Assembly (NCBI GenBank): GCA_045542555.1
Contig: JAZQLH010000029.1
Coordinates: 122-64,121, forward strand
Length of the DNA stretch: 64,000 bases
From: Acetatifactor sp.
GTDB lineage: Bacteria > Bacillota > Clostridia > Lachnospirales > Lachnospiraceae
Direction of reading: 5' to 3'
Shown piece after piece: positions 2,401 to 49,781 of this stretch (position 1 is the stretch's first letter; every line of letters begins with the position of its first letter). The position numbers were made by a program, and so were the translations under genes. Below the pieces are notes generated by a model. That model did no database searches. It was not told the DNA's origin and was given only the letters and a program-made list of their open reading frames with translations.

Positions 2401-4525
2401 TTTGCCCGGGAAAATCTTCAAATACTTCAACCTTAAACTTTTCATACATTATTTGCTTAAAATTTTCCTCATACGCAATTATCTTTTGCGCTATAGACAA
2501 TAACTCGTCATAATCCTCATAAGAAGAACTATCCTCCACAGCTTGCAAAAGTTCAATGGCTTCTCTGGCAACGCTTACACTTCTCTCCTTTGTCAGCTTG
2601 TTCTTGGCAAGTAAAACATATGCCTCCTTTTGACCACCCTCTACAGCCTTGCTAAGCCATTTCTCTGCCTTTTCCAAATCCTTATCTGTTCCTATACCCT
2701 CCTGATAAGCACATCCCAATCGAAGCATTGAATATGCATCTTTCGCATTTACACCCTTTTTATACCATCTCATTGCCTCCTCAAGATCTCGCTCTACTCC
2801 TTCACCATTTCGGAAAATATCACCAAGTCTTCCCATTGCTTCCGCATATTCATTTTCTGCGGCCTTCCTAAACCATGCTGCAGCCTTGGCAAAATCCTGC
2901 TCTACTCCTCTACCTTTATAATACACCAAACCCAGTGTATACATCGTCCTTGCATGTCCACCATCCGCGGCCTTCCTAAACCACGCAATTGCCTCTGAAT
3001 AATTTTGCTCTACGCCGCTTCCTTCCCAATACATTGCGCCAAGATTACCCATAGCTGCAGCGTATCCTGCATCTGCTGCCTTCTTAAACCACGATATCGC
3101 CTCTAAAAAATCCCGTTCCACGCCCTTACCGGAATAATACAACAAACCCACACTATGCAATGCCTGCGCATATCCGGCATCTGCTGCTTTCCTATACCAT
3201 TCTGCAGCCTTGACATAATCATTCTCTACTCCTTCGCCGTAATAATATGCCTGACCATAATGATACATTCCCTCAACATGTCCTTCTTCTGCCGCATTTC
3301 GGAACCAAATTGCTGCTTTTTCATAATCTTTCTCTACTCCCTGTCCATACTCATACGCCAGGCCAAGATTATCCATTGCAGATTGATTTCCCTTTTCCAC
3401 TGCCTTTTGAAACCATTTTACTGCTTTGTCGTAATCTTTCTCTACTCCCCGGCCATACTTATACGCCAAACCAAGGTGATTCATTGCCTCAACATATTCG
3501 TTTTGTGCCGCTTTTTCAAACCATTTTGCCGCTTTGCTATAATTTCGCTGTATGCCATTTCCTTCATAATATGCCAGACCCAAACTGTACATTGCTTCAA
3601 CATGACCATTTTCTGCTGCCTTTTTGAACCAATCGGCTGCTACGGCCAAATCCTGATTTACCCCACTTCCATTGGCATATGCTTTTCCAAGAATATTCAT
3701 AGCCGAACCGCTTCCTGCTTCCGCTCCTTTTATATACCAATCCATTGCCTTGGCAAAATCTTGTTTTACTCCCTGACCATTTGCGTACAATTGACCGAGA
3801 TTGTACATCGCATAGCCATCTCCGCCATCTGCTCCCTTCTTAAACCACTGAATTGCTTTTGCATAATTTTGTTCTACACCTTGGCCATTCATATATAACA
3901 AGCCGAGACCAGTCTTTGCAGAAGAGTCTCCGGCATTCGCGCCCTTTTTATACCACTCCGCAGCCATATTCGCATCCTGCTCTATTCCATTTCCCTGTAG
4001 ATAAGCATCACCCAGATAACACATAGACTCCGTATCTCCGGCTTCAGCTGCTTTTTGAAACCAAGCAGTTGCCTTAACAGCATCTGCTTCTATATTTTCC
4101 ATAAAATCCTTCCTACAATATGCAAATGCCATATATCTCATAGAGGGAATATGTCCGGATTCTGCTGATTTCTCCAGCCAATAGAAAGCTTTATTAAGGT
4201 CCTTATCAACAATCTGACCTTTGTAATGCTTCGCATACATATCAACCATGGCATCTTCATGACCAAGCTCTGCTGCCAGACTCATCCACTTGATACCCTC
4301 TTTTAAATCTACTTTCACACCCAGTCCCTGATAAAATGCGATTGCCATATTGAACGTTGCATCCAGATTACCGGCAGTAGCAGCCTTATAAAACCAATTC
4401 ACACTTTCTGCCAAATCCTTCTCAACACCTGAGCCCTCCCGATAGGCAAGTCCCAGTTTATTCATCGCCACCGCATCTCCGAACTTCGCCTTCATTTGCC
4501 ATGTAGATATCTTAATATCAGCCAT
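1..4525 (-). CDS. Sel1-repeat protein fused to three tandem CbxX/SpoVK-type AAA+ ATPase modules (N-terminus complete, C-terminus beyond window start; at least 1508 aa)
   Basis: Hand translation of the minus strand from ATG 4525-4523 (RBS GGAGGAG 4534-4540) stays open to nt 1. With no stop in the window it is absent from the ORF track. About 17 Sel1 repeats (A..W..KAA..G...A...LG..Y..G.GVE.D) span nt ~4500-2650. Walker A GNPGTGKTT codons start at 2251, 1426 and 571, all in frame with the ATG. Walker B is LFIDEAY in modules 1 and 3 and LFIVEAY in module 2. Confidence 0.85.
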   Translation of the reverse strand, partial: MADIKISTWQMKAKFGDAVAMNKLGLAYREGSGVEKDLAESVNWFYKAATAGNLDATFNMAIAFYQGLGVKVDLKEGIKWMSLAAELGHEDAMVDMYAKHYKGQIVDKDLNKAFYWLEKSAESGHIPSMRYMAFAYCRKDFMENIEADAVKATAWFQKAAEAGDTESMCYLGDAYLQGNGIEQDANMAAEWYKKGANAGDSSAKTGLGLLYMNGQGVEQNYAKAIQWFKKGADGGDGYAMYNLGQLYANGQGVKQDFAKAMDWYIKGAEAGSGSAMNILGKAYANGSGVNQDLAVAADWFKKAAENGHVEAMYSLGLAYYEGNGIQRNYSKAAKWFEKAAQNEYVEAMNHLGLAYKYGRGVEKDYDKAVKWFQKAVEKGNQSAMDNLGLAYEYGQGVEKDYEKAAIWFRNAAEEGHVEGMYHYGQAYYYGEGVENDYVKAAEWYRKAADAGYAQALHSVGLLYYSGKGVERDFLEAISWFKKAADAGYAAAMGNLGAMYWEGSGVEQNYSEAIAWFRKAADGGHARTMYTLGLVYYKGRGVEQDFAKAAAWFRKAAENEYAEAMGRLGDIFRNGEGVERDLEEAMRWYKKGVNAKDAYSMLRLGCAYQEGIGTDKDLEKAEKWLSKAVEGGQKEAYVLLAKNKLTKERSVSVAREAIELLQAVEDSSSYEDYDELLSIAQKIIAYEENFKQIMYEKFKVEVFEDFPGQKSAMDELDRMIGLQKVKEEVHNLKSFVEVQQKLKEMGKETQKMSLHMVFTGNPGTGKTTVARIIARILHEIGIIPTEKLIECDRTSLVAKYSGQTASQTLQVVESALGGVLFIDEAYTLSSAGDNFGQEAIDTLLKAMEDNRDNLIVIVAGYTNEMRDFIDSNPGLQSRFNMFLEFEDYTVPEMVQMFKLTCDSKGYVVADDAWQAVINEMTKINRNKSQTFANGRDVRNFFEKVLKKQNVRISRLDINSLSEMDFMTISKEDIVEEEEIKQSSQNSALAALDRMIGLDSVKAEVYNLKKTIIAQKKLRDMGRNVESASMHMVFTGNPGTGKTTVARIIAKVFHEIGIIPTDKLVECDRATLVGQHVGHTAPKTQAVIDSALGGVLFIVEAYALCPKDSSRDFGQEAINTLLKAMEDNRDNLIVIVAGYTKEMKDFIDTNPGLQSRFSLFMDFEDYTVAEMVQIFKYTCDSRGYVVSDDSWETVIKEMTKMINSKNENFANGRDVRNFFEKVLKKQNVRISRLGINGLTEMDFMTIMKEDIADETEEENEDESGVEQTSQKSALEELDGMIGLDSVKIEVLNLKKKIIAQKKLREMGRNVENASMHMVFTGNPGTGKTTVARIIAQVFHEIGVIPTDKLVECDRASLVGQYIGETAPKTQAVIDSALGGVLFIDEAYTLSPQDSPRDFGREAINTILKAMEDNRDNLIVIVAGYKKEMQDFLASNPGLESRFKYFIDFPDYIPDEMFEIFRSYCVKEQYEISEEAVPYLKEHFARMDAEKGEKFGNGRDVRNYYERVVQR

Positions 4526-4604: not shown

Positions 4605-5405
4605 CTATTTATTATTCTTTTTTCTAATCTGCTCCATGATGTCAGCATTAAGTGTTACATCACTCTTTTCTGCCACAACACTACCCGTATTACTGCTTTT
4701 TGCAATTACATTAGGCCTTTTTATCTTAATGCCACCCATGAAAAACAAGACAATGCCAACACCATGTATTACAATGTCAAGTACAATAGCAATTACAACA
4801 AATGTGAAATTATCTTCCGTTGGCGGAAAGGAAAAAGTAAGTATTGTACAAAAAGAAATAAATGTATTTATCAAAGACGGAACAATACCTACTACAAGCC
4901 CTAAAATTCTACAATCCGGCGGAATCCATGTGTCCGACGAACGAAATCCCAAGTACACACCCACAAAATGAAATGCCAGTACTAATACAAAAAAGAGTAC
5001 TCTGGGCATTGGGGACGGCCACTGCATTTCTATAAATGATAAAATTGTTGCAGACGTCATAGATGCAACACAACCGTAACTTGCCGCTAAATTCCATATG
5101 GTTAACTGACTGGAACATATCATTAACAGGAAAATGACGAAGAAGATAAAAATATCTATCTCAACCATAAAAAGCGTATCTGCATCCAACTTGGCCAAAA
5201 GCGTTCTTTCTATCGCAAATACGGACATGGAATCGGCAGAGCCTCCTGTGGCGAAATACCAAACCAGATAGGATATTCCTACCAACATTGTCAACACCAT
5301 TTCTCTGGTATGATTTTGAGCAATATAAGTAATTAACTCAATAAGGACCTTAATAGGAAACGTAAAAAGTTTAAATATTAAAAAGACATCCCATCTTACC
5401 CACAC
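4605..5405 (-). CDS. Polytopic membrane protein, unknown family
   Basis: 266-aa track ORF (GTG start) with multiple hydrophobic segments. Same strand as the Sel1/AAA+ gene, and its stop lies 79 nt upstream of that gene's ATG. Confidence 0.6.
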   Translation of the reverse strand: MWVRWDVFLIFKLFTFPIKVLIELITYIAQNHTREMVLTMLVGISYLVWYFATGGSADSMSVFAIERTLLAKLDADTLFMVEIDIFIFFVIFLLMICSSQLTIWNLAASYGCVASMTSATILSFIEMQWPSPMPRVLFFVLVLAFHFVGVYLGFRSSDTWIPPDCRILGLVVGIVPSLINTFISFCTILTFSFPPTEDNFTFVVIAIVLDIVIHGVGIVLFFMGGIKIKRPNVIAKSSNTGSVVAEKSDVTLNADIMEQIRKKNNK

Positions 5406-10837: not shown

Positions 10838-11113
10838 TTATAACAAGCTATCGTTGAATAGTCTTTCAATATCTCCGGCCTCAAATTTCATATCCTGAAA
10901 CTGTCTAGCCTGCGTCATGGTAACTAAGATATTTGAAACTACCCTGTGCCATGCCTTGTAACGTTCAAGCGATTCTATAATTCTCCCTAAGTCTTGCTTT
11001 GAAATCATAATCATTTCTCCACCTGAAACCGCAACAACTTCACCTTCAACCGCTAATTCTTTGTAAGATAGTCCCAATTCCGTCAATAGTGTTTCTAATT
11101 CTTTTTCTTTCAT
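10838..11113 (-). CDS. Hypothetical protein (islet cargo)
   Basis: 91-aa track ORF with no recognisable motif. AT-rich. Confidence 0.45.
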   Translation of the reverse strand: MKEKELETLLTELGLSYKELAVEGEVVAVSGGEMIMISKQDLGRIIESLERYKAWHRVVSNILVTMTQARQFQDMKFEAGDIERLFNDSLL

Positions 11114-11376
11114 ACTGCAACCTCCACATCTAATTATTTAATTATCTATATTATAATCTTTCCAACTACTATAAGTCCATTTGTAACCTTCACAATTATA
11201 ACTCTTTAATAGAAATTTGGAGGCATTAGTACAACTACTATTATACGTGTATTAAAATTAAAGACTCCTTTCTCTAACCTGCAAAACTTATTTTTTTATT
11301 GACCTTTATGCAATTTGCACAATAAAAGGCATTACCCTATATGGAGTAAAAGGCTTTGTGTTAATGTCCTTCTATT

Positions 11377-13823: not shown

Positions 13824-14246
13824 ATGGATAATTACGAAAGCAGACCTTTATATTCCATGCCATTTCCCAAACCGCTTAAGGAAATGACGGACGAGGAATT
13901 AAACAATCTTCTTACCGGGAAATTCAATTACAATGTACTAATCCCGGCGTTAATTGAAGCTCACTTGCGGAAAGATGAGCAAATCGCCGTACTTACCAAG
14001 CGAATTGCCTATCTTGAACAAAAGGCTCTCCAAAAGCCCGGACGTCCTCGCAGGGAGTTTTGGATTGACGGCCGGGAACTGACAGACGAGTACCTAATGG
14101 AACTGATTGACTACGGCTATTATGATAGCATCAGCAAACTAGAAAAGGAATTACACGCCGGTAAAAATCAGCTCCGCAATCGCTACAACAAAGCAAAAGA
14201 GAAGCAACTTCTAGAAAGGAAGGTAAAAAGTTATGGGAATAGTTAG
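13824..14246 (+). CDS. Small islet protein upstream of and overlapping the integrase gene (possible excisionase or regulator)
   Basis: 140 aa with RBS AAGGAGG. Contains a basic KPGRPRREF segment. It overlaps the integrase start by 14 nt. Confidence 0.5.
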   Translation: MDNYESRPLYSMPFPKPLKEMTDEELNNLLTGKFNYNVLIPALIEAHLRKDEQIAVLTKRIAYLEQKALQKPGRPRREFWIDGRELTDEYLMELIDYGYYDSISKLEKELHAGKNQLRNRYNKAKEKQLLERKVKSYGNS

Positions 14247-15579
14247 ACCAATCGTGCAGGAGTGGTGCGTACCCCAACAGTACACCTCTTCGCCGGAAGT
14301 AATCAAAAACTGCTTGCAGGAAGTCTTAGAAGATAGTATTCTTAAGCCACAAGCGAGCGAGCCGGATAATGAAGATATGAGAAAAGAAAAAAGAGAACGC
14401 ATTATCAAGGCACACATGGAGAAATATACAACTAAATATTATGAGTCAGACAACAGATGGCATTCTTTCCTGCCGGATGAAACCCTTCCACGAAAAATGC
14501 GACCCATTGCCAAGCGAAAGTTTGAAGACTTAGAAAAGGCCATCCTTGCCTATTATGAGGAGCAGGAGCAGATAAAGAACCGCAAGAAAATGACGCTCCG
14601 CAGACTTTACCCGGAATGGTTTGCCTACAAATGGCAAGACACCAACAATTCCAACTACATGAAGCATATCGAAGGCGAATGGAAACGGCATTATGTGGAT
14701 GACCCCATTATTGACCGCCCTGTTGTAGAATTTACTACTCTAGAGCTCAAAAACTGGGCAAGAAGTAAGATTGTAGCCGGACACATGACCAAGAAGCAGT
14801 ATTACAACATGGCAATCATCATTCGCCAGAGCTTGGACTACCTTGTGGAGCTTGGGGAACTGTCTACCAATCCTTATGCCAACTTCAAGATTAATCCCTC
14901 ACTATTTACGCCTGCCAAGCACAAAGAGGCAGAAGAAAGGGTATTTATTGAAGATGAGGAAAAGCAATTGAAGCAGATTGCTCTAAAGGATTTTGCCGAA
15001 CACCCGGAGCATATCGGTGCGGCAGCGGTGCTTATCAATCTATCCTTGGGACTTCGTGTATCAGAACTTGTTGGTCTTAAGTGGAAAGACCTAAAAGACG
15101 GTTATCTGCATATCCGACGCATGGAGCAGAAGCAATGGGAACGACATGCAGACGGCACTTGGAAATCCTATCTGGCAGTTGTGGAGCATACCAAATCCAC
15201 CGCCGGCGTCAGAACCCTTTATGTGGTTTCCTCTTCTCTTGCCTTATTTGAGCAAGTACGGGAAGCCAACAGACAAAGAGGTTATGGTTGCGAGCCGGAA
15301 GATTATATTTTCCAACATGCCGGAAATCGGATTACAGCTAATTCCATTGACAGCTACTATGAGCGGTACTGTAAACAACTTGGAATTGCCAAGAAGGGGA
15401 ATCACGGTGCAAGAAGAACGGCATTAACTAAGATTGCCGACAATCCCAACATTAACCTAAAGGACGCCATGGAATGGGCAGGACACCGGGATGTAAAGAC
15501 TTTTATAAATCACTACTGCTATTCCCGATACTCTGACGAACAGAAAAGAAATGAACTGGAGAAAACCCTAAATCTCTAG
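14233..15579 (+). CDS. int: Tyrosine-type site-specific integrase
   Basis: Catalytic signature present: GLRVSELVGLKW (Arg), HGARRT (His-x-x-Arg), GHRDVKTFINHYCY (His..Tyr). Adjacent to the att core and tRNA-Leu. Confidence 0.9.
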   Translation: MGIVRPIVQEWCVPQQYTSSPEVIKNCLQEVLEDSILKPQASEPDNEDMRKEKRERIIKAHMEKYTTKYYESDNRWHSFLPDETLPRKMRPIAKRKFEDLEKAILAYYEEQEQIKNRKKMTLRRLYPEWFAYKWQDTNNSNYMKHIEGEWKRHYVDDPIIDRPVVEFTTLELKNWARSKIVAGHMTKKQYYNMAIIIRQSLDYLVELGELSTNPYANFKINPSLFTPAKHKEAEERVFIEDEEKQLKQIALKDFAEHPEHIGAAAVLINLSLGLRVSELVGLKWKDLKDGYLHIRRMEQKQWERHADGTWKSYLAVVEHTKSTAGVRTLYVVSSSLALFEQVREANRQRGYGCEPEDYIFQHAGNRITANSIDSYYERYCKQLGIAKKGNHGARRTALTKIADNPNINLKDAMEWAGHRDVKTFINHYCYSRYSDEQKRNELEKTLNL

Positions 15580-15647: not shown

Positions 15648-15672
15648 TTTACTGCTGGTGGCCGGACTTGAA
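15648..15672. repeat. att core repeat, tRNA-proximal copy
   Basis: Identical 25-mer to 10730-10754. Positions 15653-15672 are the 3' end of tRNA-Leu. Confidence 0.9.
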
Positions 15673-15736
15673 CCGGCACGGGGTTGCCCCCGAGGGATTT
15701 TAAGTCCCTTGCGTCTGCCTATTCCGCCACACCAGC
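15653..15736 (-). tRNA. tRNA-Leu (anticodon UAA), class II with long variable arm, no encoded CCA
   Basis: Hand fold: acceptor GCTGGTG/CACCAGC, anticodon stem AGGGA/TCCCT with loop CTTAAAA, variable arm CGGGGGCAACCCCGT, T-arm GCCGG-TTCAAGT-CCGGC, discriminator A. Confidence 0.9.
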
Positions 15737-15778: not shown

Positions 15779-15860
15779 TGGATGGAGGTGGATTCGAACC
15801 ACCGAAGCAATTTGCAGCAGATTTACAGTCTGTCCCCTTTGGCCACTCGGGAATCCATCC
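15779..15860 (-). tRNA. tRNA-Tyr (anticodon GUA), class II, no encoded CCA
   Basis: Hand fold: acceptor GGATGGA/TCCATCC, anticodon loop CTGTAAA, variable arm TGCAAATTGC, T-arm GGTGG-TTCGAAT-CCACC. Confidence 0.85.
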
Positions 15861-19903: not shown

Positions 19904-20080
19904 GGTTTGCTTCCCTTTCTGACATGTACTTTCAAAGTACACAACCATTACCCCTATTTTACCTAAAAACCCCACCCTTTTCAATACTTTAGTCTCGATT
20001 CTCTTCTTGGAGAGATGTGTATATCTGATTGGGGCACTTTACAGATACCCCCAAGAAGACAATCGAGACATTTGGGCAGT

Positions 20081-20106
20081 AAAAAAGACAGCCGGGTAGC
20101 TGCCTT
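20081..20106 (-). terminator. Rho-independent terminator downstream of ftsH
   Basis: On the minus strand, AGGCAGC-TACCCG-GCTGTCT (one G.U pair) followed by TTTTTT. Confidence 0.5.
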
Positions 20107-20266
20107 TTTCAGAGAAGGTATTTCTTACTTATGGGGTATAGCAAAAAACTATAATGTATTGGGGGGGTTACGCTTATTATAATAGCACCGACCCTACATT
20201 TTTACTAGACTCAAAATTCACAAATATTACAAAAACCCATATCTGTTTTTGTGCATTTTTCACATA

Positions 20267-22078
20267 TTATGCAGGAAATAATGCCTCAAACTCCTTACGG
20301 GTAATCTTTTCTTTCTCCAAAAGAAGCTCTGCACAGGCATGCAGTACATCCATATGCTGAGAAATAATTTCCTTAGCCTTTGCGTAGCAATCATCCACAA
20401 TAGACTTTACTTCCTTGTCAATCTCAGCGGATATTGCCTCGCTGTGACCCTTAGCCTGGGCCAGATCACGACCGATAAACACCTCACCCTGCTCGTCATC
20501 ATAGCAGATTACACCAATATTTTCGGACATACCATAGCGGGTTACCATTCTGCGGGCAACCTTGGTAGCACGCTTGATATCGCTTGATGCGCCGGTGGTA
20601 ATATCACCGAAAATCAGTTCCTCAGCAATTCTACCGCCCAGGGATACCTGAATATCCTGAAGCATTCGGCTCTTAGTAAGGAACATTTCATCTTTCTCAG
20701 GCAGTGGCATGGTATAGCCTGCTGCGCCGGAGCTTGTAGGAACAATAGACACCGTATATACAGGTCCCACATCGGGAAGCACATGGAACAAAATCGCATG
20801 ACCTGCCTCATGATATGCGGTAATTTTTTTCTCCTTGTCAGAAATCACACGGCTCTTCTTCTCGGTTCCGATACCTACCTTAACGAAAGCATCCTGAATA
20901 TCCTTCTGAACTACAAAGCCGCGGCCTTCCTTGGCTGCATTAATAGCGGATTCATTCAAAAGGTTCTCCAGGTCCGCACCGGTAAAGCCTGCAGTAGTCT
21001 GAGCAATCTGCTTTAAATCCACATCCTCTGCCAGGGGTTTATTCTTGGCGTGAACCTGTAAAATCTCTTCACGTCCCTTTACGTCAGGAGGTGAAACAGC
21101 TACCTTACGGTCAAATCGACCGGGACGCATAATTGCAGGGTCCAGAATATCCACACGGTTGGTTGCCGCCAACACGATGATTCCCTCGTTGACACCGAAA
21201 CCATCCATCTCTACCAGCAACTGGTTCAGGGTCTGCTCTCTCTCATCATGGCCACCGCCCATACCGGTACCACGGATACGAGCAACAGCGTCAATCTCAT
21301 CAATAAACACGATACAAGGTGCATTGTGCTTAGCTTCCTCAAACAAATCACGGACACGGGATGCACCCACACCTACAAACATCTCTACAAAATCAGAACC
21401 GGAAATACTAAAGAAAGGAACACCTGCCTCACCTGCTACAGCCTTGGCAAGAAGGGTTTTACCTGTTCCGGGAGGTCCCTCCAAAAGTACACCCTTCGGG
21501 ATTCTTGCTCCCACCTTATTGTACTTGCCGGGATCTTTTAAGAAATCCACGATTTCTGCCAGCTCCTGCTTTTCCTCCTGCATGCCTGCAACCTTGTCAA
21601 AGGTGGTCTCTTTATCACCCATGGACATCTTGGCACGGCTCTTGCCGAAGTTCATCATCTTGCTGTTACCGCCGCCTCCGGCGCTATGAGCGTTCATCAT
21701 CATAAAGAAAAATGCGCCCACTGCGAGTACAATCAAAAGAGGTACCAGGCTGGTCAGTACCCAGCTTTCTCTCTGTACATCCTCTGTGTATGGATCATAT
21801 CCGTATTCACGAACTAATTCCTCCGCCACACGGATATCTGTTACATATAATCGCTTTTCCGCACCGTTTTCAAGTTCAACTGTCAAATAACCGGTAGGGG
21901 TTTCACTATTTGGCTGTATGGTAATTTCCTTGACATTCTGAGCTACCATATCAGCCACTAACTCATTCTGTGTATACCCATCACCCTGATTTTTAAACAC
22001 ATTAAGGCCGATAATCAGTACCAACAGAATAACAAACCAAATAATATAAGAATTAATGCTTCTTCCGTTCTGTTTCAA
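20267..22078 (-). CDS. ftsH: ATP-dependent zinc metalloprotease FtsH
   Basis: N-terminal TM segments, Walker [24 protein letters not shown], zinc motif HEAGHA. Confidence 0.97.
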
Positions 22079-26156: not shown

Positions 26157-26447
26157 CTACCTAAACAGCTTGGCAAGCAATGACTCTCCCTTATGACCCG
26201 GCCCCCCGGATACATCGGAATAGGTAAAACTGTCTATTTTGCCGTCTACATCCACTTCTCCCTTATCTAGTGTCAGTCTGCTGACATGCAAATCGTCACC
26301 TCGAATCATTAGCATTCCCTGCTCCGTCTCAAGCAAAACCTCATGAATATCAAAGGATAACACATCATTAACCCCGGTAAGAGTACAATTCCTGCGATTG
26401 GTCATTGTAACCTTATGCATACGGGCTGTAGCATGTAAATCTTCCAT
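26157..26447 (-). CDS. yabP: Sporulation protein YabP
   Basis: 96 aa. HKVTMTNRRNCTLTGVNDVLSFDIHEVLLETEQGMLMIRGDDLHVSRL matches the YabP family pattern. Confidence 0.85.
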   Translation of the reverse strand: MEDLHATARMHKVTMTNRRNCTLTGVNDVLSFDIHEVLLETEQGMLMIRGDDLHVSRLTLDKGEVDVDGKIDSFTYSDVSGGPGHKGESLLAKLFR

Positions 26448-26471: not shown

Positions 26472-26688
26472 GGTTCCAATTGGTTTGTTTGTGGTAGGGC
26501 ATTCTATCTTATCGATTGAGGCGCTTTATATCCTATCACGGAACGTTCCCACTCCGTGAAAAACGCAGCGGTACATAGGGTTGCAAAGTACGCAACCCAA
26601 ATACCGGCGTTTTTCAAGGTCCCGTGAGTAGGACATAAAGCGCCTAATCGATGACATATATACTCAGCACAAATAAACCAATTGGAAC
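26472..26688. repeat. Long intergenic hairpin element, copy A (about 217 bp, nested inverted repeats)
   Basis: Outer arms 26472-26493 and 26668-26688. Inner arms start at ATCGATTGAGGCGCTTTA (26511) and end at TAAAGCGCCTAATCGAT (26652). Central hairpin GGGTTGC-aaagtac-GCAACCC. The 142-bp core is about 90 percent identical to 48435-48576. Confidence 0.85.
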
Positions 26689-26733
26689 TTTAATAAAGTA
26701 TATGAAGGCCGCTTGAAAATAGACCTAAACAAA

Positions 26734-26973
26734 TTATATATACCGGAAGAGTTCTTTGGCTTCTTCTTTGCGGACTGTTTCTTGGACGTCAAGGACTTCA
26801 ACCTTTACTTCTTTGTTGCCGAAGGAGATGGTGATGATGTCTCCTTCTTTTACATTTGTGGAAGCCTTAGCCGGCTTGTCGTTAATCATGACTCTGCCGC
26901 TGTCGCAGGCCTCGTTAGCCACGGTACGGCGCTTAATTAATCTTGATACCTTTAAATATTTATCTAATCTCAT
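26734..26973 (-). CDS. S4-domain RNA-binding protein (YabO/Hsp15-like)
   Basis: MRLDKYLKVSRLIKRRTVANEACDSGRVMINDKPAK is an S4 domain. I prefer ATG 26973 (RBS GAGGAGAG) to the track start at 27078. Confidence 0.85.
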   Translation of the reverse strand: MRLDKYLKVSRLIKRRTVANEACDSGRVMINDKPAKASTNVKEGDIITISFGNKEVKVEVLDVQETVRKEEAKELFRYI

Positions 26974-27029: not shown

Positions 27030-27701
27030 CTATTTTATGGCGACAATTACTGAAAACTTCTGATAAGAATACACACATTTAATCGTCTTAAATTTACTCT
27101 TACGAAGCATTTCGATTTCTTCATCAACAGAACATTCTCTATCTAATTTTTTTCGCTCTTTCCATAATTCTATATCATGTTCGGTCAATCCGCTCTTTGC
27201 CAATTGATTTTCCCAATACGAATTAAACCATTCATTCATTTCATCCTGTCCGGCACAAAACTGGTCATAGTTTACAAATAAACCACCACTCGGCAATTTA
27301 TCATAAATTTGTGTAAATAGTTTCTGCTTATCCTCATTCTCCAAGTGATGAATTGACAAAGCAGAAGCAATTACATCAAAATCTCCGTTCGGAAGTCCTT
27401 TGGAATAATCCAACACTTGATAAGATATACTGTCTATACCAGCAAATCTCTTACGAGCAACATTCAACATTTCATCTGCTATATCTGCTAGTACATATTC
27501 TGCCGATGAACACTGTTGATACCAAAAATAAGACAATAATCCTGTTCCGGCACCCAAATCTAAAACTCGTTTTGGTTTTTCAATATTTGAAACAATAAAC
27601 TTTGTTGTATTTTCGTAATAATCATCAAAACAAGGTATAAATTTCTTTCGATTAGCATCATATTCTTGTGCCACGAAATTGAATTGTTCTTTTATATTCA
27701 T
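27030..27701 (-). CDS. Class I SAM-dependent methyltransferase
   Basis: SAM-binding motif VLDLGAGTGLLS. I prefer ATG 27701 (RBS AAGGAG). Confidence 0.8.
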   Translation of the reverse strand: MNIKEQFNFVAQEYDANRKKFIPCFDDYYENTTKFIVSNIEKPKRVLDLGAGTGLLSYFWYQQCSSAEYVLADIADEMLNVARKRFAGIDSISYQVLDYSKGLPNGDFDVIASALSIHHLENEDKQKLFTQIYDKLPSGGLFVNYDQFCAGQDEMNEWFNSYWENQLAKSGLTEHDIELWKERKKLDRECSVDEEIEMLRKSKFKTIKCVYSYQKFSVIVAIK

Positions 27702-27925
27702 TTTTAACCGCTCCTTACCACAAAGAAAACATAATAATCTAACATACAAATTGAAATTCGTCTATATTATATCTTTTCCACATTAGAAACACAATTCCCA
27801 AAAAGGGGTTAGCTACAAACCTTTGCCATTTCACCTTGAAAATAAGACTATATCTTCTTTTTTCCCATTTTAGTCCTACTTTTTAGCTCCTGCCGCAATT
27901 AAAGGCTTCCTGAATCTTGCAAATC

Positions 27926-39254: not shown

Positions 39255-39300
39255 ATTGGAAATTTTGTGTTATAATTTGATACATAATTGAATTATTTGT

Positions 39301-39412
39301 GTCCGCCGGTGTCCTCTGAGGAGTAGGGCCCTATATAGCCTATCGAGAGACCTTGAAAAACGTTCCGAGATAGGCTATATAGGGCCCTACTCCTCAGAGG
39401 ACACCAGCAGAC
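39301..39412. repeat. Intergenic 44-bp-stem hairpin element, copy C (related to copies A and B through its apical motif)
   Basis: Perfect 37-bp inverted repeat 39308-39344 / 39369-39405, extended to 39301/39412 with two C.A mismatches. The 24-nt loop GAGAGACCTTGAAAAACGTTCCGA contains the reverse complement of GGAACGTT..TTTTCAAGGTC from copies A and B. Confidence 0.85.
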
Positions 39413-39460
39413 CCAAAGAAATAAATTAGGAAAAATTTTACAGAAAGGTCGAATTATCAA

Positions 39461-47151: not shown

Positions 47152-48212
47152 TAAACTTCTCCTCCTTCCATTCGTTTCTCTGTAAGATAGGACTCCGATG
47201 TGATGTAACCGTCCGGACCGGCCTCTTCATAATATTTTGGCATACGCACAAGCTCCTGATTGGGAATAAAATAGTCCTTATTCGGATGCTCTGCCTCCAC
47301 GCCTCGAACCAGTGCATTTACCGGACACACATCTACACAACGAAGACAGCCTTTACAGTGATAATAGTCCAGACCTTGATTGACCATCATTTCCCTGCCC
47401 TTGTACTCACCCTTGGCAAACTGGAACACCATGTCGGGACAAGTGGAATGGCACAAACCACAATTAATACAACGTTCCTTGATAAAAAGTGGAATGTAAC
47501 CCTGACGGGAAGGGGATAAATCCGCAACTACCGTGCTTCCAAACCTGGGATTGATGCCACCGACAGGCGCCGTTTCATAGCCCCATTCCTGAGAAGTAGT
47601 GCCGCCACAGGTACAGTCGGCTTTTGCCGTCACATCCAATTTTTGTACCTCCTCAAATCCCCTACGGATACCTTGCAAATTGGCCTCCAGCGCATCAGGA
47701 TATTTTTTACCAAGGGTATCTTTGCAAATCTGCTCGCCCACCTTGGGATTTTCAAGGCCCATTACTTTTAAAACAGCACCCAGCATCACCACATTGATGC
47801 GGGAATGAGTTTCCATGGCAATACGCTGAGCCTCCAACCCATAGAAAATACCGCAACATCCGGTGTTTTCAGTAAGCTTCTCCATAGGCTGTCCGGGCTC
47901 CAAGGAAATAATTACCTTGGTGTCCTGATTGCAGCCCTTCCAAACAGAATTATCCCGTAGAAGTGCCTGATGAAACACCACCAACAAATCCGGTTCCACA
48001 ACCGGAGAATGGACTCTGATTTCCTTTTCCTTATCACAATACCTGATGAAAGCCTTCACAGGTGTACCTGTTTTCTCAGAGCCGTAACTGGAAAAACTGC
48101 TGCTGTTTACATCCAGATATTTTACACCCAGTTCACCCAACATCTTGCCGCACAGATTTGCACCCAAACCACCGATGCTTTCCAGTCGGATTTCATAATA
48201 CTCCTTATTCAC
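47151..48212 (-). CDS. 2-oxoacid:ferredoxin oxidoreductase, fused gamma-delta (2x[4Fe-4S]) subunit
   Basis: Gamma-type IGGLGANLCGKMLG. Two ferredoxin motifs, CINCGLCHSTCP and CKGCLRCVDVCP. GTG start overlaps the rubredoxin stop by 1 nt. Confidence 0.85.
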   Translation of the reverse strand: MNKEYYEIRLESIGGLGANLCGKMLGELGVKYLDVNSSSFSSYGSEKTGTPVKAFIRYCDKEKEIRVHSPVVEPDLLVVFHQALLRDNSVWKGCNQDTKVIISLEPGQPMEKLTENTGCCGIFYGLEAQRIAMETHSRINVVMLGAVLKVMGLENPKVGEQICKDTLGKKYPDALEANLQGIRRGFEEVQKLDVTAKADCTCGGTTSQEWGYETAPVGGINPRFGSTVVADLSPSRQGYIPLFIKERCINCGLCHSTCPDMVFQFAKGEYKGREMMVNQGLDYYHCKGCLRCVDVCPVNALVRGVEAEHPNKDYFIPNQELVRMPKYYEEAGPDGYITSESYLTEKRMEGGEV

Positions 48213-48373
48213 TATTCACTTACCTCGCTGAAAAACTGCTTGCCCATCTGGCACAAGGGACAAATGAAATCCTCAGGAAGGTCCTCAAACTTGGTACCGG
48301 GTGCAATACCACCCTCCGGGTATCCGGCCTCCTCATCATAAACCCATCCGCATACATCACATACATACTTCAT
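48212..48373 (-). CDS. Rubredoxin
   Basis: MKYVCDVCGWVYDEE...FICPLCQMGK has two CxxC pairs. True ATG is at 48373 (RBS AGGAGG). The track ORF (to 48520) is over-extended into hairpin element B. Confidence 0.9.
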   Translation of the reverse strand: MKYVCDVCGWVYDEEAGYPEGGIAPGTKFEDLPEDFICPLCQMGKQFFSEVSE

Positions 48374-48400: not shown

Positions 48401-48609
48401 AGTTTTCTTATTTGTGTTCTTATGGTATTTGGATATCGATTGAGACGCTTTAGGTCCTACCACGGAACGTTCCCACTCCGTGAAAAACTGCAGCGGTACA
48501 TAAGGTTGCAAAGTACGCAACCTAAGTACCGGCGTTTTTCAAGGTCCCGTGGTAGAACCTAAAGCGCCTAATCGATAATTCAGATGCCAAAAACACAAAT
48601 AAGAAAACT
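48401..48609. repeat. Long intergenic hairpin element, copy B
   Basis: Outer arms AGTTTTCTTATTTGTGTT (48401-48418) and AACACAAATAAGAAAACT (48592-48609). Core 48435-48576 aligns with 26511-26652. Confidence 0.85.
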
Positions 48610-48629: not shown

Positions 48630-49781
48630 CTACTTACATAACTCCTCCGCAAGCGCTTCCAGCTGAGCGGTGCTTTCCTCATCGAGTGCTGAAAGGATAC
48701 TGACTGTATTTTCTGCAAAAGTGATTCCCTTGCTTCGTTCAAACGTGTCTTTCATCAGTCTTGCCACGATGGGCATCCAAGTGCCGTTTTCCATAAATGC
48801 AACTGTACGGTTTGCAAAATTTCTCTCTGTCAGGCAGTTGATAAACTCCCGCATAGGCGGGAAAATCTGTGTGTTATAGGTGGTTGTAGCCAGAACAAGC
48901 TTACTATAGCGAAAGGCTTCGGCCACCGCCTCCGACATATCACATCTGGCAAGGTCTCTCACCTCCACCTTGGCACAACCTTTCTCTTTTAATCTCTCTG
49001 AAAGCAATAAAGCAGCCCTTCTAGTGTTGCCATAAATGGATGTGTAGGCAATAAGGCACCCCTCTTCTTCCGGCTGATAGGTGGACCATGTATGATAAAG
49101 TCCGATATAGTACCCCAGATTTTCTTTGAGCACCGGCCCATGCAGAGGACAAATCATCTGAATATCCCAACCAGCCACCTTAGCAAGAAGTTTTTGCACA
49201 TAAACACCATATTTTCCAACGATTCCGATATAATAGCGTCTGGCCTCATCTACCCAGTTTTCCGTATCCAAAGCACCGAACTTACCGAAGGCATCCGCCG
49301 AAAACAAAACCTTATCTGTAGCATCATAGGTCACGACAACCTCCGGCCAATGAACCATGGGCGCTGTGGCAAACAACAACTTATGCCTGCCCAAAGACAG
49401 CTCATATCCATCCGTCACAATTATCTGATTGTCCATAAAATCCGCACCATAATAATTTTTCATCATGCCAAAAGCCTTGGCTGAAGCCACTATTTTTGCA
49501 GATGGATACCTTTTGACAAAATGTAAAATACTGGCGGAATGGTCCGGCTCCATGTGTTGAACAATCAGATAATCCGGCTTGCGGTCACCCAGTACATTCT
49601 CCACATTTTGCAACCACTGCCCGGTAAATCCCACATCCACCGAATCCATAACGGCAATCTGCTCGTCCACTATGACATAGGAATTGTAAGAAATTCCCTC
49701 CGGCACCCGATACAATCCTTCGAATAAATCGATCGCCGTGTCCATTACACCGATGTAATTAATATCGTTGGTGATGTGCAT
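48630..49781 (-). CDS. fprA: Flavodiiron protein (FprA-type; metallo-beta-lactamase plus flavodoxin domains)
   Basis: Di-iron motif HMEPDH. C-terminal flavodoxin-like IAYTSIYGNTRRAA. Confidence 0.85.
   Translation of the reverse strand: MHITNDINYIGVMDTAIDLFEGLYRVPEGISYNSYVIVDEQIAVMDSVDVGFTGQWLQNVENVLGDRKPDYLIVQHMEPDHSASILHFVKRYPSAKIVASAKAFGMMKNYYGADFMDNQIIVTDGYELSLGRHKLLFATAPMVHWPEVVVTYDATDKVLFSADAFGKFGALDTENWVDEARRYYIGIVGKYGVYVQKLLAKVAGWDIQMICPLHGPVLKENLGYYIGLYHTWSTYQPEEEGCLIAYTSIYGNTRRAALLLSERLKEKGCAKVEVRDLARCDMSEAVAEAFRYSKLVLATTTYNTQIFPPMREFINCLTERNFANRTVAFMENGTWMPIVARLMKDTFERSKGITFAENTVSILSALDEESTAQLEALAEELCK

Follow-up and report, generated by a model that had tools for sequence, protein, structure and literature searches.

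An apparently undescribed family of dispersed palindromic repeats with a slowly changing core in uncultured ruminant-gut Clostridia

Introduction

A long imperfect palindrome, here called copy A, lies upstream of yabP in a 64 000-nucleotide stretch of an Acetatifactor sp. contig (JAZQLH010000029.1 of assembly GCA_045542555.1, positions 122–64 121; the whole stretch is referred to as the window). The question raised by this locus is what kind of element the palindrome is and whether its fold is under selection. Comparison with other copies indicates that it belongs to a family of palindromic repeats, dispersed and non-coding, that appears to be undescribed; the closest families by behaviour are miniature inverted-repeat transposable elements (MITEs) and REPINs, the inverted doublets of repetitive extragenic palindromic (REP) units. 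The repeat has spread by copying to many sites between genes, where it lies in both orientations with respect to its neighbours, and its hosts are uncultured Clostridia of ruminant-gut metagenomes. Its core changes more slowly than silent codon positions and probably does something. By a slight balance of probability we favour a MITE- or REPIN-like dispersed repeat that carries a functional, constrained folded core.

Proteobacteria, Neisseria and streptococci have well-described dispersed hairpin repeats, and the present repeat appears to be a new family in an understudied group. A core that changes more slowly than silent positions while the shells around it are scrambled is unusual for a junk repeat and suggests a function at the level of the host or of the element. 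The case also carries a caution, namely that an RNA is not to be concluded from covariation alone when the sequence is a DNA palindrome.

A dispersed family of palindromes

The core of copy A (26510–26652) was aligned with 48434–48576 at 92.4% identity over 144 columns, in the same orientation (blastn and alignment), and a 25-mer from the core shared by the two copies occurred exactly twice in the window, with zero occurrences expected. An earlier reading of the letters (the original prediction) had put this match at about 90% and had reported paired differences between the two copies; these are present, including GGGTTGC/GCAACCC in A versus AGGTTGC/GCAACCT in B. It had named A and B correctly and had overlooked a third copy, C. 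A covariance model, R1, was built from eight copies and scored the core of A at 162.8 bits, B at 154.8 bits and C at 41.3 bits (E = 1e-8); a search of the window with R1, even with filters off, found no copies beyond these three. The copies in the window are as follows.

26472–26688, minus strand: copy A, the entire imperfect palindrome (folding and inverted-repeat search)
26511–26652, minus strand: core of copy A, with ATCGAT...ATCGAT at its bounds, the part conserved throughout the family
48401–48609, minus strand: copy B, the entire palindrome, with its core at 48435–48576 (alignment, folding and model R1)
39285–39428, plus strand: copy C, a 144-bp palindrome with an internal deletion (inverted-repeat search, alignment and model R1)

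Relatives were recruited by exact-protein matches of yabP, rubredoxin, S4 and HU; their contigs, which come from ruminant-gut metagenomes and two NCBI metagenome-assembled genomes (MAGs), are denoted by L-numbers. The MAGs GCA_045543175.1 and GCA_964403595.1 are among the sequences that carry copies. Besides the three copies in the window, relatives and more distant organisms had full or decayed copies at about six other sites, so that the claim of a family was borne out. Full copies scored 46–163 bits with R1 (E-values 1e-9 to 1e-41), and assemblies made independently (ENA, JGI, Logan and NCBI) yielded the same copies. Between unrelated sites the identity of the core was 67–95% among copies of the window clade and 51–62% against the distant copies G and J. 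None of the outcomes that the original prediction had named as fatal to it (only these copies, no conservation, or a named family) was observed. Copies at the site of A itself were found in L032/L039, in L030 and in L049/L053, the last being copy K. The remaining copies are listed here.

HU–S4 spacer in relatives including L025 and L042, antisense to its neighbours: copy D
Adjoining the A copy in L030 and L034, antisense to its neighbours: copy E
L031, 1537–1767: copy F, truncated by a rearrangement
Downstream of ftsH in L035 and L057, antisense to its neighbours: copy I
L023, a distant metagenome contig, 1.6 kb apart: copies G and J
L021, a distant metagenome contig: copy H
S, L050, D in L049 and I in L056: decayed forms

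The copies lie in either orientation relative to the neighbouring genes, antisense at three of about nine sites (D, E and I), and within the window, a 64-kb stretch of mostly minus-strand genes, A and B are oriented opposite to C. Copies D, S and I lie within one 20-kb stretch of a relative. Metagenome contigs were scanned with GGACCTTGAAAAACGCCGG, and 12 of the 14 loci found were chance matches, the other two being true distant relatives (G in L023 and H in L021). A scan of genome contigs with the 19-mer GGAACGTTCCCACTCCGTG, which spans a variable mini-hairpin, gave two chance matches only. Viral-contig scans gave no true copies, and BLAST searches of plasmid and phage collections gave no match to the element.

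No gene was called inside any copy, and a protein search with the concatenated six-frame translations of three copies gave zero matches, so gene callers call no open reading frames (ORFs) in such elements. Copy A is flanked by an S4-domain gene (26734–26973) and yabP (26157–26447), and copy B by a flavoprotein (Lactamase_B/ODP) gene (48630–49781) and the rubredoxin gene (48212–48373). All four genes are on the minus strand, as the earlier description of minus-strand gene strings at both copies had it, and A and B lie in the sense orientation immediately 5' of the ribosome-binding sites (RBSs) of yabP and rubredoxin. Copy C is flanked by two divergent ORFs of 455 and 459 amino acids, which we read as putative MATE-type transporters from the Pfam match of the syntenic gene in L055/L058. 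No comparison allele was obtained for copy C; an exact-protein look-up with hpt gave one 943-bp contig and the large neighbouring proteins were unmatched.

Copies F, G and J have surroundings of their own. Copy F ends just after the one-sided segment described below, and beyond it lie unrelated DNA and, where yabP would be, a different gene; this is a rearrangement breakpoint inside an element. In ruminant-gut MAGs, copies of the family could serve as markers of assembly breakpoints, of recombination hot spots and of differences between strains, F being already at a rearrangement junction. In L023, G and J, which have the same orientation, lie on either side of a YprB-like RNase_H_2 gene, and at 11086–11351 copy J (11143–11280) is bracketed by the direct repeats ATATAC[C/T]GAGTGCAAT.

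Fold and layered organization

Either strand of copy A was predicted to fold into one hairpin of about 215 nt, with free energies (dG) of −111.8 and −113.6 kcal/mol against about −54 kcal/mol for shuffles (z = −11.2 and −13.5), and the same behaviour was found for copy B. The difference in minimum free energy (MFE) between the strands was inconsistent in direction across the copies; the choice of a strand by folding energies was dropped. The term element-sense is used for the strand that reads GGACCTTGAAAAACGCC, which for A and B is the minus strand of the window.

Copies are imperfect palindromes of 140–230 bp that are built in layers. The outermost ∼10 bp are specific to each copy; inward of these follow a sub-terminal TTTATTTGTG/CACAAATAAA motif, a poorly paired spacer and the ATCGAT-bounded core, which consists of a long stem, an inner hairpin flanked by A5 and T5 with a variable tip, and a one-sided 12-nt segment. 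The outer stem P0/P1 is found in all full copies, where its sequence varies between subfamilies and its pairing is retained. The parts of copy A were mapped as follows.

26557–26616, minus strand: inner hairpin, made of P2 (UGAAAAACGC/GCGUUUUUCA), P2a (CGGUA/UACCG) and P3 (GGGUUGC/GCAACCC, loop GUACUUU) (structure mapping)
26545–26556, minus strand: one-sided 12-nt segment, CGGAGTGGGAAC, with the 2-bp mini-hairpin GT-GGGA-AC and its GNRA-type loop (sequence comparison)
26472–26493, unstranded: outer arm, plus-strand GGTTCCAATTGG TTTGTTTGTG, the copy-specific outermost part together with the sub-terminal motif of the family
26668–26688, unstranded: other outer arm, plus-strand CACAAATAAA CCAATTGGAAC (inverted-repeat search and alignment)

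The 12-nt segment lies on the 3' side only (element-sense) and has no partner on the other arm. Its pattern CGGA-[G/A]-Y-GNRA-R-[C/T] was found in all 11 of the sequences compared, in seven variants (GTGGGAAC, GCGGAAGC, GCGAAAGC, GTGGAAAC, GCGAGAGC, GCGGGAGC and ACGAAAGT). Two pairs close the GNRA-type loop of the mini-hairpin, which reads G[C/T]-GNRA-[G/A]C, or AC-GAAA-GT in one copy; both pairs covary (G-C to A-U and C-G to U-A), with 100% of the cells paired over the 11 sequences. Other registers for the segment (GGAGYG/CGUUCC and GGRA-NCG-UYCC) suited several copies; the GNRA register alone suited all 11. The motif is that of GNRA tetraloops in RNA and of GCGNNAGC mini-hairpins in DNA, here embedded in a larger repeat. 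Four of the seven variants fit GCGNNAGC exactly, and sequences of this form are extraordinarily stable mini-hairpins in DNA (PMC13037366).

The inner hairpin is preceded by an A5 run and followed by a T5 run on both strands. In P2a and P3 there are pairs changed on both sides, and the apex of P3 differs in length and sequence in copies E, F, G and H. Copy C, with an inverted repeat of 60-nt arms that are 90% complementary (inverted-repeat search), retains the sub-terminal motif TTATTTGTG on one arm, the opposite arm being degenerate (CCCAAAGAAATAA); it retains GAGACCTTGAAAAACG joined to TTCCGAG and is without P2a, P3 and the 12-nt segment.

The outer arms of A and B had been described as unrelated in sequence yet self-complementary, and this had been used as an argument for selection on structure. 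The self-complementarity was confirmed (81% for 26462–26493/26668–26699 in A and 85% for 48389–48421/48589–48621 in B), as was a copy-specific outermost ∼10 bp; the arms are not wholly unrelated, TTATTTGTG ... CACAAATAA being common to A and B just inside that part. The argument is weaker than claimed, since the arms share a sub-terminal motif. The TTTATTTGTG/CACAAATAAA form of this motif is common to A, B, one arm of C, S and D as found in L042. In D of L025, in E and in K the motif is degenerate. More copy-specific paired bases lie outside it.

Constraint on the core

Over eight sequences, 94.8% of the cells of the core were paired and 13 pairs had changed on both sides, which was reached by none of 500 shuffles; slid controls were 35–44% paired. 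With 11 sequences 87.2% of the cells were paired and 12 pairs had changed on both sides. The compensatory substitutions of the original prediction are thus real, and they were also found between copies at the same site in different species. Copies A and K, which are such a pair, are 85% identical in the core against 50–62% in the shells and 66% at third codon positions of S4, and 14 of their 21 core differences fall in seven compensated pairs. Copy A and the L039 copy are 95% identical in the core against 82% at third codon positions. The outer arms at the A site are likewise compensated between species, with AATTGG/CCAATT in A versus TCTTCG/CGAAGG elsewhere; at the same site TTTGTG/CACAAA corresponds to GGGTG/CACCC, again compensated. 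Unpaired nucleotides (CU and CACGGA) are conserved as well.

Copies within one genome are distinct from each other, with 69% identity between D and I and 70% between the A copy of L030 and E. They are not homogenized, so gene conversion between copies does not explain the conservation of the core. Its slower change relative to the shells and to nearby third codon positions points to constraint. The earlier claim of selection on structure does not follow, in a palindrome of DNA, from covariation alone. Complementarity of inverted repeats can be maintained by template switching from arm to arm, with no RNA involved (PMC5941160), so that covariation in such a palindrome does not tell whether RNA or DNA is the folded form.

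Persistence and decay

A conserved block of sequence lies next to copy A.

26697–26725, minus strand: conserved block GGTCTATTTTCAAGCGGCCTTCATATACT, just upstream of A and outside the element (alignment of relatives)

All relatives conserve this block whether or not they carry the element, L051 and L046 being examples without it. The block probably represents the yabP promoter and would thereby place A in the 5' untranslated region (UTR) of yabP; the assignment is putative and is based on the form of sigma-E/K −10 boxes (CATAnnnT). At the yabO–yabP site the same insertion, between the promoter-like block and the yabP RBS, is present in species whose S4 third positions are 56–66% identical to those of the window, and the copies at this site are old.

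Although copies persist at the same site across species, the elements are dispensable, and internal or one-sided deletions have led to decayed forms (C, S, L049, L050, L031 and L056). S retains the shells only, L050 has lost the 5' half of the core, L049 has half of D, L056 has a remnant of I and C has lost its centre, in a pattern that fits a deletion between the two AACG repeats present in A. Copy B is present in L008 and L009 and absent from L005, L006 and L007; in L005, where the rubredoxin gene is 98% identical, the allele retains exactly the right outer arm GAAAACCAGG, and no ORF is involved. Of about ten relatives whose sequences were compared at its spacer, L030 and L034 alone have copy E, which is the best candidate for a gain, and the only likely one.

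A fold-back model, in which a nascent strand copies the donor core, snaps back and copies its own flank, had been proposed from one-arm alleles and was rejected for site D. The L042 copy with TTTTATTTGTG-N17-TCGATT, together with the half-deleted intermediate in L049, makes the L031 allele a deletion relic and not an empty site, and the 'arm' that it retains is ordinary family shell.

Several further observations concern these sites. A 78-bp palindrome (19992–20069) with 30-nt arms that are 83% complementary lies in the window at the position of copy I in L035/L057 and of its decayed remnant in L056; this palindrome might be what remains of a family copy reduced to its shells. In the S4–yabP spacer of L050 (∼1950–2050) there is a different hairpin, GGGCATATACAGAAAAAA ... 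TTTTTTCTGTATATGCCC, with 18-bp arms and a loop of ∼55 nt. Palindromes seem to insert preferentially in this spacer, as at a hot spot. In L031 and L025 about 150 nt of the HU–S4 spacer flanks are identical and the adjacent S4 gene differs at 8% of positions, a contrast that points to recombination mosaicism among these species.

Relation to known repeats and RNA families

At the gathering threshold, Rfam 15 matched three tRNAs only in the window, and at E ≤ 10 it added only snoRNA and small RNA (sRNA) noise of 12–19 bits against thresholds of 40–100, in keeping with the earlier reading, which could not match the palindrome to a named RNA family. A literature search found no description of the family, nor of dispersed hairpin repeats in gut Clostridia. 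parS, Noc, Spo0A, cre and DnaA boxes were compared with the core by eye and none fits in spacing.

The copies (144–230 bp) agree with the description of MITEs as dispersed, non-coding elements of less than ∼500 bp. Palindromic bacterial MITEs can act as RNA hairpins or terminators. Examples are Correia/NEMIS of Neisseria, ERIC/RU-1 of enterobacteria and RUP and BOX of Streptococcus (PMC3184786, PMC2759123). Like these, the present copies are imperfect palindromes of the 100–200-bp class that are intergenic, occur in both orientations and vary in presence, the known elements often being transcribed. Unlike these, the family has no sequence similarity to them and no known parent insertion sequence, its conservation peaks in the centre and not at the termini, and its core outlasts silent codon positions between species.

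REPINs are best described in Proteobacteria, whereas the host of the present element is a Clostridia lineage. They are dispersed intergenic hairpins that persist for long times and show arm complementarity (PMC3337134), and their REP units are 20–40 bp long and tagged by GTAG or CGTC at one end (PMC3733652). The present family shares with REPINs the dispersed, non-coding, intergenic placement, the long single-strand hairpin, the long persistence and the arm complementarity. It differs in being a layered, single palindrome of at least 140 bp (140–230 bp) with an asymmetric core that carries a mini-hairpin, and GTAG or CGTC was not conserved at a fixed position in any of the copies read. No RAYT gene was seen in the loci examined, which are contig fragments.

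The A5 run, the G+C-containing hairpin and the T5 run, readable on both strands, resemble a bidirectional intrinsic terminator, from which the element differs in that the stem is broken by a 2-nt bulge and an internal loop and is enclosed by a further stem of ∼35 bp. A consensus scan for intrinsic terminators found zero sites in all three window copies, and by eye the stem ahead of the T5 run is interrupted.

Alternative explanations

For a MITE- or REPIN-like repeat with a constrained core, the conserved lopsided core would work as a folded single strand. It could be a handle for the enzyme that copied the element, or it could form a stable hairpin or terminator-like module when transcribed, as in the yabP and rubredoxin leaders. 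The complementarity of the arms would be maintained by selection on the fold, aided by arm-to-arm templated repair. A more specific proposal is that the core represents a new class of functional folded nucleic acid, in which a long-stem junction bears both the GNRA mini-hairpin and the hairpin between A5 and T5, acting as a mobile riboregulator, terminator or insulator or else as a single-stranded DNA (ssDNA) signal, and that its clostridial hosts have kept it by purifying selection at sites such as the yabP leader since before the species split; this is put forward tentatively, as something that we would not expect to hold.

A number of results weigh against the repeat reading. The long-term conservation of individual copies is not predicted for a purely selfish repeat. 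Most documented polymorphisms are losses, and A, D and I have long occupied conserved sites, so these data are no evidence of recent mobility. No transposase or mobilizing gene was found among the ten scanned proteins and the gene tables of the loci, with most window ORFs unscanned. Copy A has a perfect 8-bp CCAATTGG on both sides, which is itself palindromic and so ambiguous as a target duplication, and no clean direct target duplication was seen at the flanks of B and C. The sample is one of ∼9–11 partly independent copies, none of them from a complete genome. In copy E, TTAATTCC/TTAATCC may be a candidate direct repeat. Duplication of the palindromic CCAATTGG would by itself lengthen the hairpin, and part of the outer-arm pattern ('unrelated but self-complementary') may have arisen in this way.

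The alternative that survives best, possible although on the unlikely side, is that the element is primarily a cis-acting structured RNA, spread or domesticated. When transcribed as part of leaders and intercistronic regions, the long hairpin and its core, with P1, the terminator-like P2–P3 with U5 and the GNRA mini-hairpin in a three-way arrangement, would control the fate of the mRNA, possibly through termination or attenuation, RNase III processing or 5'-end stabilization, and the RNA fold would be what selection acts on. The GNRA-type loop with its covarying closing pairs in 11 of 11 sequences is what such an RNA would show, as are the conserved unpaired CU and CACGGA, the apparent purifying selection on the core between species and the sense orientation of A and B before the yabP and rubredoxin RBSs. 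A G·U pair in P1 is on the same strand in ten of the 11 sequences and would be an A·C mismatch on the opposite strand; on the mRNA-sense strand wobble pairs outnumber A·C mismatches by ∼13 to 5, counted as unique events. This excess is marginal, however (∼p = 0.05), and strand-biased C-to-T mutation would give the same excess, while the MFE differences between the strands are inconsistent in direction. The antisense copies D, E and I (three of ∼9 sites) and the unrelated neighbours (yabP, rubredoxin, the transporter-like ORFs, the HU–S4 spacer and the position downstream of ftsH) do not suit a cis-acting regulator, and several lineages (S and L050) have deleted the core at the yabP site with the site kept. 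No sigma-70-like promoter was found by a scan in or beside the window copies, and the inner hairpin was not called by the simple terminator scan.

An improbable alternative is that the element is the non-autonomous partner of an ssDNA transposase in the manner of REPIN/RAYT or IS200/IS605, in which an HUH enzyme encoded elsewhere in the genome would bind and cut the folded top strand, with the one-sided mini-hairpin as its mark. IS608 and REP/RAYT enzymes recognize hairpins with a strand-specific irregularity. A hairpin of this style is their kind of substrate, as with the hairpins of REPINs (PMC3337134); the four mini-hairpin variants that fit GCGNNAGC, very stable in DNA (PMC13037366), and the lack of a clean direct target duplication at B or C agree with such a partner. 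By the tag criterion (PMC3733652) it fails, with no conserved GTAG/CGTC and no fixed tetranucleotide or other fixed short motif beside the ends, and it is five to ten times the length of a REP. Palindrome-associated elements of the IS200/IS605 type insert strand-specifically beside a fixed tetra- or pentanucleotide, which gives one orientation per replichore. The mixed orientation within 64 kb (A and B versus C) speaks against an insertion that is strictly strand-specific and sets the present element apart from them, and no Y1/HUH gene was seen in the loci examined.

Folded attC-like recombination sites for a tyrosine recombinase have been largely refuted and retain very little probability. 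One-sided extrahelical features are typical of attC, and as in integron attC sites structure is conserved beyond sequence with one-sided irregularities; a phage-integrase-family protein is also encoded in the window (14233–15579). There are, however, no RYYYAAC ... GTTRRRY boxes at the element ends and no core sites, cassettes, arrays or adjacent integron integrase; the element comes and goes without a cassette ORF, its copies are scattered among housekeeping genes, and the tRNA genes next to the integrase are what an ordinary island would have.

The idea that there is no real family, the palindromes being independent products of template switching, which can create hairpins de novo (PMC10710096), or artefacts of data that all come from metagenome assemblies, is refuted by the shared asymmetric core of 142 nt at unrelated sites, by the recovery of the same copies in independent assemblies and by the R1 E-values.

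Other features of the window and of related contigs

The phage-integrase-family gene at 14233–15579 (plus strand) directly adjoins tRNAs at 15653–15736 and 15779–15860 (minus strand), and the ORFs 3155–3898, 4605–5405 and 13824–14246 upstream of it have no Pfam match; the leftmost ∼15 kb of the window could represent an integrated island or the remains of a prophage.

Downstream of ftsH (20267–22078), at ∼20085–20266 on the minus strand, lies a non-coding block of ∼190 nt that ends in the strong terminator AAAAAGGCAGCTACCCGGCTGTCTTTTTT. It is near-identical in L035 despite silent-site differences between the species and has no Rfam match; it could be an sRNA or a 3'-UTR element.

Between HU and S4 the window carries a methyltransferase gene (27030–27749, minus strand), where relatives have an unrelated gene of 266 amino acids or nothing; this slot thus carries variable cargo.

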